64,000 nt of DNA from assembly GCA_015486135.1 (NCBI GenBank), contig WFSE01000116.1, positions 772 through 64,771 of the forward strand, given 5' to 3'. Every line of letters begins with the position of its first letter. The stretch's first letter is position 1. The notes below the pieces were generated by a model, which worked only from the letters and a program-made list of their open reading frames with translations, was not told the DNA's origin and searched no databases. This stretch comes from Lentisphaeria bacterium (lineage in GTDB: Bacteria > Verrucomicrobiota > Lentisphaeria > Victivallales > JAADHT01). Positions 675 to 63,899 of this stretch are shown one piece after another. The translations under genes and the position numbers were made by a program.

Positions 675-682
675 TCAATTAG

Positions 683-996
683 GGGTCACTGAATAATTGT
701 TAAGTGCTTTATTTTCATTGGGTTAAATTTCTTTTTAGCGGTGTCATCTCCAAGTTTTTGGAAGCAATCCTCCCAGAAACCTTGGAGACGATTAATGTTC
801 TCCGCTCAATTTGAGGCACTTGCCAATTCCGCGACACACGTTCGTGTGATTTAAGGGTGTCCCGCGCTACGCTGGGACACCTATGTCCATCAGGCGCGAA
901 GCGTCCTTCCGCAAAGCCCGCAGGGTTCGCATAGCGAACGGAAGGATCGGCTTATTGCCTAGCCACTGACCCGTTCTCGACTTTTTCAGTAAACCC
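683..996 (-). mobile_element. Family-A MITE-like element, copy 1 (inverted relative to copy 2), no ORF
   Basis: Ends GGGTCACTGAATAATTG... and ...TTTTTCAGTAAACCC are inverted repeats. The 7-mer CAATTAG flanks it at 676-682 and 997-1003. It shares the TCTCCAAG..CCTTGGAGA core with the other copies. Confidence 0.75.
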
Positions 997-2579: not shown

Positions 2580-2840
2580 GGGTTTACTGAAAAAGTCGGA
2601 AACGTGCCGATGATTAGGCGACGAGCCGACGGCGTGCTTTGCACTCCTAGGCGAAGGCAACGAGATCAGCGGTGCGTTTCCGGCTTTCCCGGAATTGGCA
2701 AGTGCCTCAAATTGAGCAAAGAACATTAGTCGTCTCCAAGGCCTTTGGGAGATCTGCTCCCAAAACCTTGGAGATGACAACACCAAAAAAGGCATTTAAC
2801 CCAATGACAATAAGGCACTTGCCAATTATTCAGTGAGCCC
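2580..2840 (+). mobile_element. Family-A MITE-like element, copy 2
   Basis: Left end GGGTTTACTGAAAAAGTCGG and the reverse complement of the right end GGGCTCACTGAATAATTGGC agree at 14 of 20 positions. A perfect 7-bp direct repeat TATGTTA lies at 2573-2579 and 2841-2847. No ORF. Confidence 0.8.
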
Positions 2841-22211: not shown

Positions 22212-22214
22212 CTA

Positions 22215-22501
22215 GGGTTTACTGAAAAAGTCGGAAACGTGCCGATCCTCCATCGCCGCCAAGCGGCTATGGAGGACTCGTGATTAGGCGACGAGCCGCT
22301 GGCGTATAAGCATACTCCTAGGCGAAGGCAACGTGATCAGCGGTGCGTTTCCGGCTTTCTCGCGGAATTGGCAAGTGCCTCAAATCGTTAGTCGTCTCCA
22401 AGGCTTTTGGGAGATTTGCTACCAAAACCTTGGAGATGACACCATTAAAAACAGGCTTAACCCAATGAAAATTAAAAACTTGCCAATTATTCAGTGAGCC
22501 C
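22215..22501 (+). mobile_element. Family-A MITE-like element, copy 3
   Basis: Same termini as copy 2. Direct repeat TAACTA at 22209-22214 and 22502-22507. The left repeat contains the leuS TAA stop. Confidence 0.8.
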
Positions 22502-22529
22502 TAACTAGAGCCTGCCGCATAATTTCCCG

Positions 22530-23011: not shown

Positions 23012-23094
23012 AACATACTAGGGAAAGACCGACTTGAAATTACTTTGGGCAGCATTGATAATTTCTCTAAAAAGTGGTCTCCTATGAAGCACCG

Positions 23095-23574
23095 ATGACA
23101 ATGTTGACAAAAGCAAAAAACATTATCTTGCGCTACATTGTGCCGTATTTGTTGCTTCCAGTGGCCATATCCCCTTACTTTCTCTCCCTGGCTCTTGCCA
23201 TGTCGATATGCCAGCGCTGTCGCTGGCTGTATGCGGGAGGTGGGGATCAAAGCATTGGAGTTGTCTTTGGGGTTGCACTTCTTGGGCTTGCCTCCATCCT
23301 TATCGTGTTTCTCTACTATATCTTTTTGATGATCATATGGCAATTTCGTAAAAATATAATTAAATGGATATATCGCCTGATACTTTACTGTCTCTTTACT
23401 ATTTGCCTAAGTCTGACAATTTGCACGTCTTATAGCTCGTTTAAGATATGGGCAACTCTTGTTTTGGCGATATTCCCCCTCATCGGATTGATAGTTGCCG
23501 ATTTGAGTGCAGTCACATATTTCAAGATTGTAGACGCAAACGGGAATAGGGTATGCGGTGATCAAAAGGATTAA
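23095..23574 (+). CDS. hypothetical multi-pass membrane protein (AT-richer orphan)
   Basis: Four or more hydrophobic helices. The start is uncertain (GTG 23074, ATG 23095 or ATG 23101). Confidence 0.45.
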   Translation: MTMLTKAKNIILRYIVPYLLLPVAISPYFLSLALAMSICQRCRWLYAGGGDQSIGVVFGVALLGLASILIVFLYYIFLMIIWQFRKNIIKWIYRLILYCLFTICLSLTICTSYSSFKIWATLVLAIFPLIGLIVADLSAVTYFKIVDANGNRVCGDQKD

Positions 23575-23606
23575 AAAAGCCTGCCCCTTTTGCAAAGATA
23601 TAATTA

Positions 23607-23706
23607 GGGTTTGCTGAAAAAGTCGGAAACGTGCCGCTGATGTCGCAGCCCTTGTCGCCACGGGCGGGGAACGCCGCCGATGGCAAGTGGATTATTAACC
23701 TGTCCC
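23607..23706 (+). mobile_element. mini-MITE with family-A left end and family-B right end
   Basis: Left end (TA)GGGTTTGCTGAAAAAGTCGGAAACGTGCCG. Right end ...GGCAAGTGGATTATTAACCTGTCCC(TA). Confidence 0.6.
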
Positions 23707-23759
23707 TAATTCTCTAAAGTTGGCTCAACGGCAAGTTGATTTAGGATGTCGGGGGGGGG

Positions 23760-25496
23760 TTAGCGTATTTTTGCTATAGTTCTCGTAACGGTGGACATTT
23801 CGGAATGGCTTACAGGCAACGAGAATGCCACCGTGCAACCCTCGTCTTTTTTGCTGCTAGCGGATATATTGCCTTCGTGGGCGGTGACGATTCGCTTGGA
23901 GACGGCGAGGCCAAGCCCCGTTCCAATGGATCCTTTGGAGGTGACGAAGAGGTCGAACATCGAGTCCAATTCTTTTTTATCTAGTCCGATGCCGTCGTCA
24001 CTTACCGTCACGATGGCGAAATCTCCTTTGTCATTGAATTTGGACATCACCAGGATATGTCCGGAGTTGTCCTCATCGCCGATGGAATCCCTTTTGGCGA
24101 GAATCGCCTGTTCGGAATTGGATATGAGATTCAGCAACACCCGGTGGATTCCCTTGGCATCCAATTCCACATAGAAAGGAGCGTTTTTGACAGCCGTGTC
24201 CATTGCGATGGATATTCCTTCCTGTTGCAACTGTGGTTCCACTAGCTCCACCACGTCGCCGATAATGGCGTTGAGGTCATGTATTGCCAGTTCGGGTTCT
24301 TGCTCGCTGGCCAGGTTCAGCAGGTCCAAAACAAGATTGCTAAGGCGCCGGTGGTTTTTGCTCAGGATTCTCGCGGCTTCCGCGGCAATCTCGAAATCCT
24401 TTTCCTCCACGCCCATTTGGAGAAGGTTCAAGCTGCCGTCCAAGCCCGCCAGGATATTTTTAATGTAATGGGAGAGCCCTGCCGCTGTGGCTCCGGTGGC
24501 AACCAATCGTTCGTTTTTAAGATTGAATTCCACAAGGCGGCTGTTTTCGATAGCCATTCCAGCGATATGGCCGATAACCGTCAAAAGACGCAAATCGTCC
24601 TCGGTGTACTTTTGCGTGGGGCTTGTCACGGAAAGATACACCATTCCGTTCAGTTGCCGTTTACCGAGCATTGGCACACACATTATGCTGGTTACGACAT
24701 ACGGCATTCCCACCATTTCCTGGAACTGGCGTTTTTCGGGGGAATCATCTATGGATAGTACCGACTCTTTGTTTTCGCGGACGAAATTGATTACTGCTTG
24801 GGAGATGTCGTTTGGGTTTACTTCTTCGATCATTCCGGATTCGTCCCGCCCGCCAACCGGTTGGAACGTTCCGCTTTCGAGATCATAGAGCAACAGGTAC
24901 GCCTTGTCCGTCGCTATCACATCCATCAACGCGTTCAATATTCGTGGATACAGCTCTTTTTCGTCCAATACCGAAGCGATCATGTTTTGAAATTTGTATA
25001 TTGCCGAGAGGTGTTGGCTTTCTTCCCTCAGCAAGCGTAGCGACGGTGCTCGTCCGGCGTGCCCCCCCCCTTCTTCGATTCCCGGGCGTGAGACGGCTAG
25101 CGTCTCTGGCTGGATGCTGTATGCCACAAATGGCCTGTTGAATGATTGCGTGTCCGATGCGTAGGCATCTATGAGTTCTATGATGGTGTTACCTATGCGT
25201 ACCGAAGTTTTCAAGGGCAAAGGAGAACGCTTGTCGACCTTGCGTCCCACCATCCAAGTTCCATTTGTGCTACCCAAATCGGAAATGAACCAATGCCCGT
25301 TTTCCCACTCCAAGAGGCAATGAGTTCGGGAAATCATGGAATCATGGATTTGGATGTCGGCATCGGCAGTTCTTCCCAGCGTGAACCTTTCTGTTCTTAC
25401 TGGAATTTCCGTGCCGCGCATGGCACCGCTGACAACCTTTATTATGGTGTCGCTATAGGTGGCGGGTGCCTTGGCGTTTTTCCTTCTTCTCTCCAT
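23760..25496 (-). CDS. FHA-GAF sensor histidine kinase
   Basis: FHA-like FTLGRTADADIQIHDSMISRTHCLLEWENGHWFISDLGSTNGT. H-box GLSHYIKNILAG. ATPase boxes DDGIGL and GTGLGLAV. The ATG at 25496 follows GAGGAGG. Confidence 0.8.
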   Translation of the reverse strand: MERRRKNAKAPATYSDTIIKVVSGAMRGTEIPVRTERFTLGRTADADIQIHDSMISRTHCLLEWENGHWFISDLGSTNGTWMVGRKVDKRSPLPLKTSVRIGNTIIELIDAYASDTQSFNRPFVAYSIQPETLAVSRPGIEEGGGHAGRAPSLRLLREESQHLSAIYKFQNMIASVLDEKELYPRILNALMDVIATDKAYLLLYDLESGTFQPVGGRDESGMIEEVNPNDISQAVINFVRENKESVLSIDDSPEKRQFQEMVGMPYVVTSIMCVPMLGKRQLNGMVYLSVTSPTQKYTEDDLRLLTVIGHIAGMAIENSRLVEFNLKNERLVATGATAAGLSHYIKNILAGLDGSLNLLQMGVEEKDFEIAAEAARILSKNHRRLSNLVLDLLNLASEQEPELAIHDLNAIIGDVVELVEPQLQQEGISIAMDTAVKNAPFYVELDAKGIHRVLLNLISNSEQAILAKRDSIGDEDNSGHILVMSKFNDKGDFAIVTVSDDGIGLDKKELDSMFDLFVTSKGSIGTGLGLAVSKRIVTAHEGNISASSKKDEGCTVAFSLPVSHSEMSTVTRTIAKIR

Positions 25497-25820
25497 TTCG
25501 GAATGGTTCCTCCTCGTGGTCTCACCAACGACTATACAACATCTGGAGTAAAAAAGCAAAGGGGTAGGATGGAGACGGGACGATCCCGGCAATGGAATGA
25601 AGAGGGCGGAGTCGGTAAAACATTTTCAAAAGCTGAATGAGCGCTTGCTGGTTTGGGTGAGCCAAGTCCGTGTCCAGCGGGATTGACATCAATGAAAACG
25701 GGCTTACCCTAACAGGAATAAAGCCAGTCGTTACTCGAGAGCCTCTTGACGCGGGGAGTTCTGCATGGTGGTTGGTCTGGTAGTATATGGAATGCGTAAC
25801 GCTAATCGAGATTTAGGCCG

Positions 25821-26864
25821 ATGGGAAAACACAAAAAGAAAATCAAGGTGGCGTTTGTGGGATGTGGCAGGATTTCCCGCAACCATCTCGAGTCGATGTT
25901 GGCACTCAAGAAGGAGTGCGAAGTTGTAGCGGTTTGCGATGTCGACCGTGAGCGGGCTAAGATGGCCGGGGGCAAGACGGGAGCCGAAGTGTTTACCGAC
26001 TACGACAGGATGTTGGCGGAATCCGACTGCGACTTGGTATCCATCGCCACGCCTTCCGGGCTTCATCCTGATATGGGGGTGAGGGCGGCCGAGCGAGGGC
26101 GACACGTGCTCACCGAGAAGCCTATGGCTATAGATCTGGATAGTGCGGACAGGTTAATAGAGGCCTGTGACGATAATGGAGTTATGTTGTTTGTGGTGAA
26201 GCAGAATCGTTTAAACGCCACCATGCGACTACTAAAAAGCGCCGTGGACAAAAAACGGTTTGGCAAAATATATTGCGCCCATGTGAACGTTTTTTGGCAA
26301 CGGCCACAATCCTACTACGACATGGCTCCTTGGCGCGGTACTTGGGCATTGGATGGCGGGGCGTTGATGAACCAGGCCAGCCATTATATCGATTCCCTCT
26401 ATTGGTTGGTTGGTGACGTGGCGGAGGTCGTCGCTATCGCTGGTACGCTGGCACGAAAAACGGAGGCGGAGGACACTGCCTCGGTTGCGTTGAAATTCGC
26501 GAATGGCGCCATTGGGAGTGTAAACGCAACCATGCTGACGTATCCGAAAAATTTCGAGGGTTCCGTGGTTCTGCTCGGGGAGAAGGGGACTGTCAAAATT
26601 GGCGGTATGGCGATTAACCGCGTTGAGCACTGGGAGTTTGCCGATTACGACGACGACGATAAGTTCATTGAGCAATGCAATTACGCTCCCCCCAACGTCT
26701 ATGGGTTCGGCCATCAACCTTATTACGAGAACGTTTTCGCCGCGATTAGAGGCGAGGCCCAGCCGGAAACCGCTGGCAGGGACGGCCGTAAGAGTTTGGA
26801 GATAATCCTCGCAGCGTATAAGTCTGCCAAGGACGGCGTCAAGGTGGCGTTGCCGTTAGATTGA
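25821..26864 (+). CDS. Gfo/Idh/MocA family NAD(P)-dependent oxidoreductase
   Basis: IKVAFVGCGRISRNH Rossmann N-terminus, EKPMA motif, and a C-terminal dimerisation-like region. Confidence 0.8.
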   Translation: MGKHKKKIKVAFVGCGRISRNHLESMLALKKECEVVAVCDVDRERAKMAGGKTGAEVFTDYDRMLAESDCDLVSIATPSGLHPDMGVRAAERGRHVLTEKPMAIDLDSADRLIEACDDNGVMLFVVKQNRLNATMRLLKSAVDKKRFGKIYCAHVNVFWQRPQSYYDMAPWRGTWALDGGALMNQASHYIDSLYWLVGDVAEVVAIAGTLARKTEAEDTASVALKFANGAIGSVNATMLTYPKNFEGSVVLLGEKGTVKIGGMAINRVEHWEFADYDDDDKFIEQCNYAPPNVYGFGHQPYYENVFAAIRGEAQPETAGRDGRKSLEIILAAYKSAKDGVKVALPLD

Positions 26865-29781: not shown

Positions 29782-29853
29782 CCCAAGCTCCTTGGAGTCG
29801 TTTATAATTCGCATCTCAAGTTGAGATACTTGACAATTATTCGGGAAGCCCTA
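29782..29853 (+). repeat. degenerate right-end fragment of family-A element
   Basis: CCAAGCTCCTTGGAGTCG core and ACTTGACAATTATTCGGGAAGCCCTA, compared with the canonical CTTGCCAATTATTCAGTGAGCCCTA. Confidence 0.4.
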
Positions 29854-38501: not shown

Positions 38502-38530
38502 TAGGGCTTGCTTAATAATTGTCAAGCAGG
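38502..38530 (-). repeat. solo terminal-repeat remnant of family A
   Basis: TAGGGCTTGCTTAATAATTGTCAAGCAGG, compared with TAGGGCTCACTGAATAATTGGCAAGTG. Confidence 0.35.
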
Positions 38531-38622
38531 TTATCCTATAGGGCAAGGCTCCCCTGGAGCGCGCAGATTCCGCAAGCGGAAGCGGTAAGCCTGTCCCGCC
38601 ATTTTTCCTAGGGGCTTAGGTA

Positions 38623-38960
38623 GGGCTCACTGAATAATTTGCAAGTGTTTAATTTTAATTGGGTTAAGCCTGTTTTCAATGGTGTCATCTCCAAGGTTTT
38701 GGTAGCAGATCTCCCAAAAACCTTGGAGCCGACTAGCATTTTGAGGCACTTGCCAATTCCGTGACACACGTTCGTGTGATTTAAAGGTGTCCAGCGCTAC
38801 GCTAGGGACACCTAGTCCATCAAGCGCGAAGCGTCCTTCCGCAAAGCCCGAAGGGTTCGCAAAGCGAACGGAAAGAGCGGCTCGTCGCCTAATCACAAGT
38901 CCTCTATCGCCTGGAAGGCGGCGGAGGGATCGGCACGTTTCCGATTTTTTCAGTAGGCCT
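38623..38960 (-). mobile_element. Family-A MITE-like element, copy 4 (long form)
   Basis: GGGCTCACTGAATAATTTGCAAGTG at the left and CGGCACGTTTCCGATTTTTTCAGTAGGCC at the right. Its central module is nearly identical to copy 1. I found no clear flanking duplication. Confidence 0.75.
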
Positions 38961-39018
38961 CTATAAGAAAGTAATTTCAAGAGAAAGGCTTGGCTTATGG
39001 TTTTTTCCTTTTAAAGTG

Positions 39019-39358
39019 TAGGGACAGGTTAATAAAGGCCATCTTGCATGCCCCTGCAATGCCTGCATAGTACATAGTGGAGAAAGAACAGGGACTTGCG
39101 ATATCCGCAGCAAGCTGGTAGCTTATCCGCGCCATGGGACGCAGGGAAAAATGGAGGATACAGAAAAATCAATAGCGGATGTTTGACTCCAATAGTTCTT
39201 GGGGAACACCCATGGTATACAGCGAAAGAAAGGCCAAAATGAAAAAAACAGAAACAGTATTGTCCGGTATAGAGATTGTGACCGTGGAAAATACAATGAA
39301 GGGTTTTCGGCTGTTTCAGGAGGTCTGTTCATGCTGGTGTGCTATTAACCTGTCCCTA
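39019..39358. mobile_element. Family-B element bounded by perfect 16-bp inverted repeats (MITE or invertible promoter segment)
   Basis: TAGGGACAGGTTAATA at 39019-39034 and its exact reverse complement at 39343-39358. Internally carries TTGCGA-N17-TAGCTT (39096-39124) facing the downstream gene. Confidence 0.7.
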
Positions 39359-39874
39359 GTCTCTATTTTGATAATTTCAATTTTTATTTCTAGTCTCGTT
39401 GGCTGTGCGCCTTATTTAAATCATGACAATAATGTTGTGTCTCTAAAGTATTTCCAGACAACTCTCTCCAAAGAAAAATGGAAGTGGGGATACGGGGGGA
39501 AAAACCAGCAACAGGAGATAAACGAATATGTTCCACTAAATGAGTCCGTGGAAAAATGGACGGAATTAGTCACAGAGCAATATATATTTCAATTTGACAA
39601 AAAATTATTATCCAAATATGTCGCAATAATTAAGGAACAACTTCGTGCTAACAGTAAAGATTTTCAATGGAGAATAATTGAAGAAAATGACGACAGCATT
39701 GTATATGAATGGTCGCATCAAGGCAGCGGCATTTATCCTCCAACATATGAAGTCGCAAAATTGTTTGCGGTCAATGGGGGATTATATCGGATAGCTTATG
39801 ATAAATATACAAAAGAAATGGACGATGATGCTAAGAAATGGAGAACGTCCATTAAAAACGCAAAAATAAAATAA
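39296..39874 (+). CDS. hypothetical lipoprotein (AT-rich orphan)
   Basis: Lipobox-like SSLVGC after a hydrophobic stretch. The start is uncertain: ATG 39296 lies inside the repeat, TTG 39368 just outside it. Confidence 0.45.
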   Translation: MKGFRLFQEVCSCWCAINLSLVSILIISIFISSLVGCAPYLNHDNNVVSLKYFQTTLSKEKWKWGYGGKNQQQEINEYVPLNESVEKWTELVTEQYIFQFDKKLLSKYVAIIKEQLRANSKDFQWRIIEENDDSIVYEWSHQGSGIYPPTYEVAKLFAVNGGLYRIAYDKYTKEMDDDAKKWRTSIKNAKIK

Positions 39875-39920
39875 GATTGGCTCTTCCGCAGTTGTGGGCT
39901 ATCGCTTAGATTTTCCTCTG

Positions 39921-39955
39921 AAAAACGCCCCCCTTTCAGGGGTGAGGGGGCGTTT
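39921..39955. terminator. bidirectional intrinsic terminator between convergent genes
   Basis: AAACGCCCCC / GGGGGCGTTT stem with a 13-nt loop. Flanked by A5 on the left (U5 for the minus-strand dedA transcript) and TTT on the right. Confidence 0.55.
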
Positions 39956-40043
39956 CCCAAAGGGAAATCTATTTGGGTGTCGGATTGTGTAGCCTCATTT
40001 TGCGCCTGCGCCACCCACTTTTTCTGCCGACGAGGCACCTTTT

Positions 40044-41167: not shown

Positions 41168-41173
41168 ATAATA

Positions 41174-42311
41174 GGGCTCACTGAATAATTGGTAAGTGTT
41201 TAAGAATCATTGGGTTAAATCTGTTTTTAGCGGTGTCATATCCAGGATTTTGTGAGCATGCGCGCGAATATCTGGACTCAGTTCCGCAATTTGACTGAAG
41301 CCGGGAGTGCTAGTCCCGACCTCGGTGGCTCGTAGCCAACATGTCCTCCGTGTTATCCGCCACCGCTCTAGCGAAAGAGGGATCACCGGCCCGTTTTCGG
41401 CTTTTTCCGCAAGCTCTTTTTAGGCAACCTTTTTGTAGAGTCTTCGTTGTTTGTTCGTATCACTTTGGTATTTGAAAAGACAATGGTAGTGGAATCGCCA
41501 CCTTTTTCCCGCATTACCACCGTCGACAAGTGAAACATGCCATTGGATTTGGCGAAGGCAAGGGTTACGTTGGCGACGACTTTGCCTATCAGCTTGTTTT
41601 TTGGGCGGAAGACAAGAACCGGCGCTTCGGGGGAGGATTTTGGAGAGGTCTCGATATTGTAATCCTCCGACAGCACCTCGTAGCGTCCCATCAACCAAGC
41701 GCCCAACTGTTTCCACATCAAACTCATCATCGGGTTTTCCGACCGCGAAAAGACTTTTCTTTCCCCTGTAGCCTCGTCCCAGGTTTCGGCTTTGTCGCCT
41801 TTTATAGCCACAGTGCTCCGCATTGGGGAGAGCACCCTCCATTCCAGCCCGTCGGGGAAATCGATTCGGAGCGTCCCTTTCAAGACTATTGGTTTGTCGA
41901 ACAGGCTTATTTTGTTCGTTTGCGTGAAGTCCGCGGTCAAGGTTTTCGCATTGGTGAATCCAGTTTCAATGGCGGCTAGTATGGTTGGGGGCGCGTCCCG
42001 CGTTTTCGTGGTGTCACCAGCAATCGCGGAAGTCGCGGCCAGCGCGCAGCCGCCAAACAGGAGTTGTTGAATAATCGTTGACAATTTCATGTTCATTTGG
42101 TTGCCTTTTTTTAGGATGTTTGGGGTCAGTTCCGCATGTTGCCCGATACTCAGGCCCGTCGTTACTCGGGTAGGACCCCTCCGTGCCGCAGGCACCTTTC
42201 CGGCTTTGCGGAGGGGGTCCCGACTCCGGCGGCCTGTCGCCTAATCACAAGTTCTCCATAGCCCGGAGGGCGACGGGAGATAGACACTTTGTCGATTTTT
42301 ACAGTCATTCC
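41174..42311 (-). mobile_element. composite: family-A termini bracketing the lolA-like gene
   Basis: Right-type end GGGCTCACTGAATAATTGGTAAGTG at 41174. Left-type end ...GTCGCCTAATCAC...GTCGATTTTTACAGTCATTCC ending near 42311. Internal direct repeats at 41278-41337 and 42126-42241. Confidence 0.45.
41383..42096 (-). CDS. LolA-like outer-membrane lipoprotein carrier family protein
   Basis: Signal peptide MNMKLSTIIQQLLFGGCALAATSAIA. TLTADFTQTNKISLFDKPIVLKGTLRI resembles the LolA fold signature. Confidence 0.5.
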   Translation of the reverse strand: MNMKLSTIIQQLLFGGCALAATSAIAGDTTKTRDAPPTILAAIETGFTNAKTLTADFTQTNKISLFDKPIVLKGTLRIDFPDGLEWRVLSPMRSTVAIKGDKAETWDEATGERKVFSRSENPMMSLMWKQLGAWLMGRYEVLSEDYNIETSPKSSPEAPVLVFRPKNKLIGKVVANVTLAFAKSNGMFHLSTVVMREKGGDSTTIVFSNTKVIRTNNEDSTKRLPKKSLRKKPKTGR

Positions 42312-63405: not shown

Positions 63406-63414
63406 GAAACCCCA

Positions 63415-63606
63415 GGGTTTGCTAAAAAAGTCGGAACCGCTTTGTCCCGCCGGCCTGAGTCCAGCGCCCCCCCCGTCCGCGCTCCGGATCTCCATTCCAT
63501 TAACCTGCCCTCTAGTAACTTTGCACTCGCCCTTTTTGAGACCGCGGGGATCGTTCTCCAGGCTCTTTTAGCTGGACCTCTCTCTGGACCTCTATTAACC
63601 TGTCCC
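63415..63606 (+). mobile_element. family A/B chimeric repeat(s) downstream of the RND gene
   Basis: Left end GGGTTTGCTAAAAAAGTCGGAACC. Two right-type ends: ATTAACCTGCCCTCTA (63499-63514) and ATTAACCTGTCCCTA (63594-63608). Confidence 0.5.
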
Positions 63607-63899
63607 TAAGCTCTTTCCGTCCATGAAGATTTGACAAGATAATGCAGCGGAGTGTTTCCCCTCACACCTTTCACCCCTAATCTTGCCCCGCTCTTGATTA
63701 ACAAGTCAACGATCTCAGGGTTATTCATTGCCCCATAGTGGAGAGGGTATAATCCTCGCCACATCGTGTTGACATATTTTTTATCAGATTTAGATAAAAC
63801 AAATTTTACAATCTCAACGTCTCCATACATTGCCGCAAAGCATAAAGGATTGTTGCCATGCTTATGCTCAAGTTGCAAAGCCCCTTTTTCGATAAGCAA
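63606..63899 (-). CDS. ankyrin repeat protein (AT-rich; 5-prime end unclear, possibly disrupted)
   Basis: GNNPLCFAAMYGDVEIVKFVL and GNTPLHYLV are ankyrin consensus-like. Ankyrin-like coding sequence continues upstream of the called TTG, up to an in-frame TGA. Confidence 0.5.
   Translation of the reverse strand: MLIEKGALQLEHKHGNNPLCFAAMYGDVEIVKFVLSKSDKKYVNTMWRGLYPLHYGAMNNPEIVDLLIKSGARLGVKGVRGNTPLHYLVKSSWTERA

Follow-up and report, generated by a model that had tools for sequence, protein, structure and literature searches.

The window (the whole 64-kb stretch of DNA that was analysed) is ordinary chromosome that carries a ribosomal-protein/SecY cluster and genes for LeuRS, sigma-54, an AcrB-type pump, and a fucosidase. 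One enzyme encoded in the window is 76% identical in amino acids to its counterpart in a Kiritimatiellota MAG. Directly upstream of an orphan lipoprotein gene lies a 340-bp segment (39019-39358) that is bounded by both arms of a 16-bp inverted repeat. The features of this segment, the body of the lipoprotein gene, and two solo copies of the 16-mer are shown in Table 1, where the 16-mer is labelled as a terminal inverted repeat (TIR) following the reading preferred in this work. The GC content of the whole window is 52%, which serves as the reference for the values of the interior and the lipoprotein gene.

Table 1. Coordinates of the putative TIR copies and of the adjoining lipoprotein gene in the window.
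Feature	Position	Strand	Remarks
Left TIR, TAGGGACAGGTTAATA	39019-39034	+	Exact match
Interior, 308 bp, unique sequence, 46% GC	39035-39342		Carries neither a transposase remnant nor a convincing promoter
Right TIR, exact reverse complement of TAGGGACAGGTTAATA	39343-39358	-	Lies over the position of the ancestral lipoprotein start codon
Orphan lipoprotein gene body: h-region of the signal peptide, lipobox LVGC, mature part	39359-39874	+	35% GC
Solo TIR copy between two convergent genes	23693-23708	-	Exact match; ORFs 23074-23574 (+) and 23760-25592 (-) on either side
Solo TIR copy 3' of the AcrB-type gene	63593-63608	-	Exact match

The inverted repeat and its copies in the window

The perfect 16-bp inverted repeats at the ends of 340 bp that had been described in an earlier note on this DNA were recovered, with both arms exact at their coordinates. 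The pairing of the arms reaches outward to 23 nt at 87% when mismatches are allowed. In a fold of the single-stranded DNA the arms form a 16-bp stem in the MFE and the centroid structures, which is a consequence of the repeat itself. The single recurrences that the note had placed at 23694-23708 and 63594-63608 are also real. Both are full 16-mers, each one base longer than reported, and both read as TATTAACCTGTCCCTA. An ankyrin ORF on the minus strand takes its stop codon from the TAG that ends the copy at 63593-63608, as seen from the translation and Pfam match of this ORF.

When up to three mismatches were allowed, five matches to the 16-mer were found in the window against 0.23 expected, and none of 100 shuffles reached five. 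The recurrence of the 16-mer in the window is far beyond chance. The fifth match (26144-26159, two mismatches) codes for ADRLIEA within a Gfo/Idh/MocA oxidoreductase gene, and it is probably a coincidence. No partner of the solo copies was found in the window at up to four mismatches, and nothing more stood above background at that level; thus the solo copies have no degenerate partners.

The outer flanks of the 340-bp pair are AAAGTG and GTCTCT. They have nothing in common, and therefore target-site duplication is absent at this segment. The TA dinucleotide that had been taken as common to both flanks turned out to be part of the repeat. Neither the rest of the window nor any of the loci that were fetched has a second copy of the 308-bp interior or a sequence similar to it (blastn and tblastx). 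The Rfam search of the whole window was empty at the gathering threshold and returned only noise around the element at E <= 5. The literature search with the motif sequence matched unrelated primers and barcodes only.

The gene of the DedA protein that neighbours the element was found on three contigs, and the two of these loci that were fetched are identical to the window. The other assemblies that carry the locus (L049 and L050) are a MAG (GCA_027076635.1) and an ENA metagenome scaffold, and they are 100% identical over 7957 bp.

The lipoprotein start and the invertible-promoter reading

The signal peptide and the lipobox (VSILIISIFISSLVGC) directly follow the right arm, which agrees with the earlier observation and is seen in the translation. 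The lipoprotein family is very small and consists of four clusters in a collection of 5.8 billion proteins. The homologues (P0002-P0004) are 48-65% identical and have a normal lipoprotein signal with the N-termini MKLKISIISIVFSVIAGC or MKYSILIF… (MKLK/MKY), and the 16-mer does not occur at their loci. DNA homology with the locus of one homologous gene (L051) starts at window position 39365, and the ATG of the homologues aligns to approximately 39353, within the right TIR. Since this ATG falls inside the right arm, the element occupies the place of the native start. By this alignment the right arm covers the site at which the lipoprotein gene ancestrally began, and the native start would have been displaced by the element.

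In silico removal of 39019-39358 joins the flanks as …AAA GTG | GTC TCT ATT…, which places an in-frame GTG right before VSILIISIFISSLVGC and within one codon of the start of the homologues. The chance that a start codon falls at this spot by coincidence is about 5% per codon position. The restored in-frame start fits the insertion of one block without duplication. With the element present, the lipoprotein frame is open upstream to in-frame ATGs at 39179, 39212, 39239, and 39296. In the current orientation this frame reads MKGFRLFQEVCSCWCAINLSL…, and after in silico flipping of the interior it reads …MAFINLSL… into the same lipoprotein signal peptide.

It had been proposed that the segment has the architecture of a phase-variable inverton. 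A site-specific recombinase would then flip the 308-bp interior, and with it either the promoter or the N-terminal end of the lipoprotein would be switched. The perfect inverted repeats directly upstream of a surface-lipoprotein gene are as expected for such a switch, and either orientation gives an ATG-led frame that crosses the right repeat and enters the signal peptide. However, the promoter-like sites in the interior are at background level, with three sites found by the promoter scan compared to 2.9 in shuffles. The proposed promoter TTGCGA-N17-TAGCTT is indeed present at 39096-39124, but it matches the consensus at only 7 of 12 positions and is not among the sites found by the scan. No tyrosine or serine recombinase was found in the scan of the 30 largest ORFs of the window or in the precomputed Pfam hits of the neighbours, and neither of these gave a transposase. 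The homologous genes have an ordinary start without repeats, and the 16-mer also occurs singly, where there is nothing to invert. The other assemblies carry the segment in the same orientation, yet this gives little information as the copies are 100% identical. Many unrelated contigs, moreover, have the 16-mer as the end of HUH-transposase units, as described below. The inverton is very unlikely on the combined evidence.

The 16-mer beside Y1/HUH transposase genes in other contigs

The genome scan for the 16-mer used one genome per species and gave 48 loci, most of which are the chance-level scatter expected for a 16-mer. Twelve of the 48 loci belong to PVC-group MAGs (Opitutaceae, Opitutales, Verrucomicrobiia, Kiritimatiellota, Victivallales, and 'PVC group'), some of them with multiple copies. 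The metagenome scan gave 88 further loci. All instances were oriented as TAGGGACAGGTTAATA→, and the ORFs that follow them were tabulated.

In five loci (L065, L066, L073, L075, and L109), a gene for a protein of 310-341 aa starts 50-85 nt after the exact 16-mer. Three other loci (L044, L062, and L067) have a left copy with two mismatches upstream of the Y1 gene and an exact inverted copy 240-365 nt past its stop codon. The motif is therefore found 50-85 nt ahead of the recurring gene in eight loci, and three partial loci (L112, L128, and L137) are fragments of the same arrangement. In these loci the 16-mer keeps a conserved place with respect to the transposase gene. The inverted copies past the stop codon show that the unit consists of TIR, promoter, Y1 gene, trailer, and TIR, with a length of about 1.35 kb.

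All seven of the aligned proteins that adjoin the motif pass Pfam Y1_Tnp (PF01797) with 34.6-48.7 bits against a cut-off of 23. The NHFH (HUH) motif and the YIDLNP motif, which is the class-2 tyrosine motif, are invariant in their alignment, and the alignment also exhibits a conserved tail, RCRVRYFSDG…. The closest PDB sequence match of an adjoining protein is ISDra2 TnpA (PDB 2XM3, E = 1.5e-4). Against the NCBIfam RAYT equivalog NF047646 the adjoining proteins score 64.6 and 66.1 bits, which is below the cut-off of 80. By these profile scores the proteins are RAYT-like and not canonical RAYT.

Several copies have a -35/-10 pair just inside the motif, such as TTGACA-N17-TATAAT in L089 and similar pairs in L075 and L066. 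The motif lies just upstream of the -35 box in these autonomous units, and it forms arrays of direct copies in two loci, with five copies in L022 and a further array in L025. Both arrangements would suit a binding site of a host regulator or nucleoid protein, that is, a cis-regulatory sequence that is not mobile. However, the solo copies in the window are at the 3' ends of genes and not upstream of them, and the only gene that is consistently beside the motif is a transposase. The exact 16-mer is also found in different phyla, for which the horizontal spread of an element is the better fit. A host regulator site is highly improbable with these distributions.

The loci of four members of the Y1 family that had been picked regardless of the motif (P0042, P0057, P0043, and P0108) were also fetched. 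The P0042 loci have a variant TIR, with the left end GGGAACA[A/G]GGTGACAGGCTATTA and the right end (read inward) GGGAACAAGGTGACAGGTTAATA. This TIR stands 76 nt before the gene and, on the other side, 224 nt after it. Its right-end copy has the last 12 nt in common with the 16-mer motif. The P0042 unit was found in different flanking contexts without target duplication. The P0057 loci have AGGGTCAGG at the corresponding upstream spot, where the motif of GGGGWSAS type (a consensus described below) is AGGGTCAG; its counterpart at the P0042 loci is GGGAACA. The P0043 loci have only the looser AGGGTCTCCAGG upstream, and at the P0108 locus the gene begins at the contig end, which leaves the upstream side absent.

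The possibility of a MITE of the classical DDE type (Tc1/IS630-like), mobilised with TA duplication, had been raised in the earlier note as the plain alternative to an inverton. Like such a MITE, the segment is short and has perfect inverted repeats at its ends, which start with TA. This TA, however, is inside the repeat, and the flanks show no duplication. The units with the related TIR variant at the P0042 loci show no target duplication either. No DDE transposase accompanies the motif in any locus, and the gene bounded by the motif encodes a Y1/HUH enzyme. A Tc1/IS630-style MITE is extremely unlikely here. The more general suggestion of a MITE family with a shared terminal sequence holds in so far as the 16-mer is the TIR of a mobile-element family and the 340 bp most probably a gene-less pair of it; the assignment to the Tc1/IS630 type does not.

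Among 124 distinct exact instances of the 16-mer, an inverted partner lies inward in 16 and outward in 4, and the orientation of partner copies is non-random. The inward distances cluster at approximately 1200-1400 nt, where the gene is present (5 instances), and at 1-313 nt, where the pairs are gene-less dimers that include the window pair. The gene-less dimers elsewhere include one of 133 bp in L011, which is from a PVC-group MAG, and pairs in L139, L040, and L024 that are back-to-back or nearly adjacent. Gene-less dimers with other spacings therefore exist, and the 308-nt spacer of the window pair is the longest among those seen.

Several other candidates for the function of the 16-mer were considered and dropped. 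The density of the 16-mer is too low for a DNA uptake sequence. The five direct copies in L022 had suggested multi-site ends of the Tn7/Mu kind, which were dropped once the association with Y1 genes appeared. A translation signal without SD upstream of ATG had been considered for the Opitutaceae loci, where the motif was found to be the right end of a unit bounded by TIRs. To our knowledge, integron attC, dif/Xer, and hix/gix-type sites have no sequence resemblance to the 16-mer, and they were dropped as well.

The 340-bp segment as a putative gene-less TIR pair

Enzymes related to RAYT normally read hairpins, and the repeats that accompany those described here, the TIRYTs, are plain inverted repeats. 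The passages of Di Nocera et al. 2013 cited in this work (PMC3733652) describe RAYT-like genes with long terminal inverted repeats in place of REP hairpins, and the names TIRtrons for the units and TIRYTs (TIR-associated tyrosine transposases) for the enzymes are from the same source. Many TIRs of TIRYTs are described there with a similar distance to the gene and a common GGGGWSAS motif, and the TIR families are described as moderately abundant and present as singles, dimers, and groups (PMC3733652). The loci identified elsewhere in this work resemble TIRtrons in that a RAYT-like Y1/HUH gene has inverted repeats on both sides, and the distance to them is short and fixed. The window TIR AGGGACAG matches 7 of the 8 positions of GGGGWSAS and differs in the first consensus G, which is A. 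The window copies consist of one dimer and two singles, which is similar to the mainly extragenic TIRs of that description. In contrast to it, the window shows the gene-less form only, and one of the arms falls within a coding region. The cited passages of PMC3733652 mention neither the 16-mer itself nor the hosts in which it was found (Kiritimatiellota, Verrucomicrobiota, and other PVC MAGs).

The match of the 16-mer and its layout to TIRtron/TIRYT units elsewhere leads to the reading that we consider most probable, at roughly 80%. The 340-bp segment would be a non-autonomous, gene-less TIR pair of the Y1/HUH (TIRYT) family that was mobilised in trans as a block, and the solo 16-mers would be single TIRs. 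The element would hence be a gene-less TIR dimer that is MITE-like but not of the Tc1/IS630 type. The 16-mer is identical to the ends of the TIRtron units elsewhere. The autonomous form would consist of a TIR, a promoter, a TIRYT gene for a Y1/HUH protein (IS200-like and RAYT-like) of 310-340 aa, approximately 250 nt, and an inverted TIR. Neither a TIRYT gene nor a transposase remnant was found in the 64-kb window by tblastn. As the window has no transposase gene, we infer mobilisation in trans. A cognate transposase is assumed to be present in the source organism, where its Y1/HUH gene would be bounded by AGGGACAGGTTAATA. We infer that the repeats are moved by this kind of transposase, and the P0042 unit, judged from its flanks, appears in different contexts.

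The TIR pair would have arrived as one block, moved by a TIRYT encoded elsewhere in the source genome. The route would be single-strand cut-and-paste by a HUH Y1 enzyme, which leaves no duplication. We know of no biochemical work on TIRYT enzymes, and the transposition mechanism is thus extrapolated from the work on IS200/IS605 and RAYT. The insertion would have separated the start codon of the lipoprotein gene from its second codon, and the empty site before the insertion may have read …TTTTAAAGTG GTCTCTATTTTG…. After the insertion, the lipoprotein gene would be silenced, or it would be translated from an ATG internal to the element with a long atypical N-terminus. This effect would be a by-product of the insertion and not a designed switch. 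A disrupted or re-headed orphan lipoprotein gene would then be the sole biological consequence at the window locus.

Several findings stand against this reading, and the length of the spacer is one of them. The interior is unlike the leader or the trailer of any TIRtron compared, it is single-copy in everything searched, and neither window arm keeps the TTGACA box that is seen after the TIR in several autonomous copies. The dissimilarity of the interior to TIRtron leaders and trailers leaves an origin by internal deletion unsupported.

The same dissimilarity of a unique interior would be in line with two independent solo TIR insertions around 308 bp of native upstream DNA that never moved together. 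Solo copies are present in the same window, and other genomes have clusters of both direct and inverted copies of the motif, for example the direct copies in L022. On the other side, the removal of the whole block restores an in-frame start where the homologues predict it, which is better explained by a single insertion. The interior also bears no resemblance to the DNA upstream of the homologous genes in L051-L055, and the 16 inward partners outnumber the 4 outward ones. Two solo insertions are slightly disfavoured as a minor variant of the main reading, and we regard them as unlikely.

The TIRYT (HUH) transposase itself could also flip the 308-bp interior or cut it out, and the lipoprotein start would be toggled in this way. 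The present, flipped, and excised states all give an in-frame start codon into the same signal peptide in silico. There is only a slim chance that this takes place. If true, toggling driven by a HUH enzyme would be phase or N-terminal variation without a tyrosine or serine recombinase. The use of the 340-bp element as an on/off switch has no support on the present evidence. The gene-less TIR pair is an ordinary repeat element of the TIRtron kind that has already been described.

The adjoining proteins are comparable to the class 2 TnpA_Y1 proteins, whose signature is Y---NP (Quentin et al. 2018, PMC6006769). It has been reported that most TIRYTs fall in subclass 2.1, which belongs to class 2 of the Y1 superfamily and encloses subclass 2.3, and that subclass 2.3 consists of proteins of about 325 aa with a 55-aa insertion, a C-terminal tail, and no REPs, mainly from Chromatiales and Alteromonadales (PMC6006769). 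The motif-adjoining proteins likewise have NHFH, WE, and YIDLNP motifs, a length of 310-341 aa, a C-terminal tail, and an insertion of approximately 55 aa that separates the HUH motif from the Y motif. REP hairpins are absent from the vicinity of their genes. This likeness to 2.1 and 2.3 is by features and motifs and not by phylogeny. The HTH tail of subclass 2.1 (Bac_DnaA_C, HTH_23, and HTH_28) was searched for in the seven adjoining proteins, and none of them had a Pfam hit at E <= 1.

The window copies are similar to REPIN/RAYT systems (Bertels and Rainey 2011, PMC3116915; Nunvar 2010) where short repeats occur as singlets and inverted doublets. The mobilisation of REPINs is also attributed to a Y1 transposase that acts in trans and has the repeats on both sides of its own gene, and the repeats are mostly extragenic at the 3' ends of genes (PMC3116915). 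However, the 16-mer is not self-complementary, while a REP is an imperfect palindrome of 20-40 nt. There is no conserved GTAG head, and a G precedes only one of the four window copies (at 39018). The window arms pair across 308 nt, compared to a REPIN spacer of tens of nt, and the adjoining proteins are under the NCBIfam cut-off for RAYT.

The Y1/HUH catalytic core and the absence of target duplication are shared with IS200/IS605 elements. These differ in having asymmetric subterminal hairpin ends instead of terminal inverted repeats and proteins of approximately 140 aa without the insertion and the tail, and the motif-bounded units have no tnpB gene. The likeness to invertible promoters (fimS and Bacteroides invertons) is limited to the inverted repeats around a few hundred bp beside a surface-protein gene. 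The window differs from these in that its interior has no credible promoter, that a recombinase was not found nearby, and that its repeat is a transposon end, which occurs both on its own and on the two sides of transposase genes.

Perfect inverted repeats beside a surface-protein gene, which are easily called invertons, can therefore be orphan ends of HUH units, and this is a caveat for annotation. The exact 16-mer and its core AGGGACAGGT provide a searchable handle on one TIR family in Kiritimatiellota, Verrucomicrobiota, and other PVC MAGs, and through it on a large transposase family that is biochemically untouched. The profile search identified at least 7998 clusters of this Y1 family at E <= 1e-20, some of which are labelled by JGI as 'REP element-mobilizing transposase RayT'.

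Two further repeat families in the window

The window contains a second repeat family that ends in TAGGGCTCACTGAATAATT. This end occurs seven times in the window compared with an expectation of 0.01, and the coordinates of all features are shown in the table below. The end is similar to the 16-bp terminal inverted repeat (TIR) in its pattern TAGGG-N6-T-AATAA, which is followed in the second family by TTG.CAAG. The TTG.CAAG resembles the TTGACA that follows the TIR in autonomous TIRtron units, in which two inverted TIRs enclose a gene for a Y1/HUH transposase (TIRYT). A second TIRYT lineage may own TAGGGCTCACTGAATAATT, which would then be its TIR. The family also forms an element of ~145 bp whose two copies are mutually inverted, and it is probably the same repeat that the earlier note had named family A.

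A third short repeat, AGGGTTTGCTGAAAAAGTCGGAAACGTGCC, begins directly past a stop codon in the three copies whose gene context was examined (22213, 23606, and 63410). A copy of the TIR 16-mer lies ~60-180 nt away from this repeat in three places.

Coordinates of repeats, genes, and ORFs in the window and at other loci
Feature	Location	Strand or orientation
Second-family end, TAGGGCTCACTGAATAATT	window 680-698, 2824-2842, 22485-22503, 29835-29853, 38502-38520, 38621-38639, 41172-41190
Second-family element, ~145 bp	window 38619-38765, 22357-22505	mutually inverted
Third short repeat, AGGGTTTGCTGAAAAAGTCGGAAACGTGCC	window 2585-2611, 22213-22251, 23606-23636, 63410-63437; 38923-38955	inverted at 38923-38955
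Lipoprotein gene	window 39179-39874; counterpart region L051 3582-5522
Imperfect palindrome, 26-bp arms, 85% complementary, 13-nt loop	window 39907-39971
Small ankyrin-repeat ORF	window 63606-63899	(-)
Five copies of ACCTGTCCCT within 150 bp	L022 6796-6946	direct
MITE-like dimer, ~195 bp, arms AATAGGGACAGGCAATCTGA / TCAGATTGCCTGTCCCTT	L149 1085-1280; L150 339-534, 1085-1280
90-aa ORF, MAWKSESPMDQKQQF…GLSERSRRPH	L001 7271-7543; L010 275-565; L067, in the stretch from the end of the Y1 gene to the right TIR
362-aa ORF, MCSTVLKRRSKMKYYISTTEFNCGIDLHARQ…	L102, ~349 nt inward of motif copy 3943-3958

Genes and palindrome next to the TIR copies

The lipoprotein gene is much more AT-rich than its surroundings and belongs to a tiny family (four clusters in 5.8 billion proteins). 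An alpha-L-fucosidase gene adjoins it both in the window and in L051, a contig that carries a homologue. The lipoprotein gene and the DedA gene are convergent, and the palindrome that separates them shows no similarity to the TIR and is probably a bidirectional terminator. The solo TIR at 63593-63608 has TAG as its outermost triplet, and this TAG is the stop codon of the ankyrin-repeat ORF, which the TIR may have clipped or re-terminated.

TIR clusters, gene-less pairs, and additional ORFs at other loci

The array of ACCTGTCCCT in a Verrucomicrobiia MAG separates two genes of an ABC-transporter operon and is a cluster, not a dimer. The MITE-like dimer is located upstream of a TIRtron, with two copies in L150, and shows that gene-less pairs of related GGGACAGG-type arms exist in other genomes.

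In Opitutaceae-like TIRtrons, the Y1 gene is followed by a 90-aa ORF that precedes the right TIR. This ORF resembles an IS481-type transposase at its HTH N-terminus. It may be a fragment that was captured, or else a DNA-binding gene carried as cargo or in an accessory role. Contig L102 has the start of a 362-aa ORF near a TIR copy, and this ORF presumably resembles an IS110-family transposase. REP-like repeats are known targets of IS110 elements.

One motif locus is identical in two contigs (L016 and L028) that were assigned by one study to an Opitutaceae MAG (ANT-100) and a Dehalococcoidia MAG (ANT-39), which is probably a binning error.
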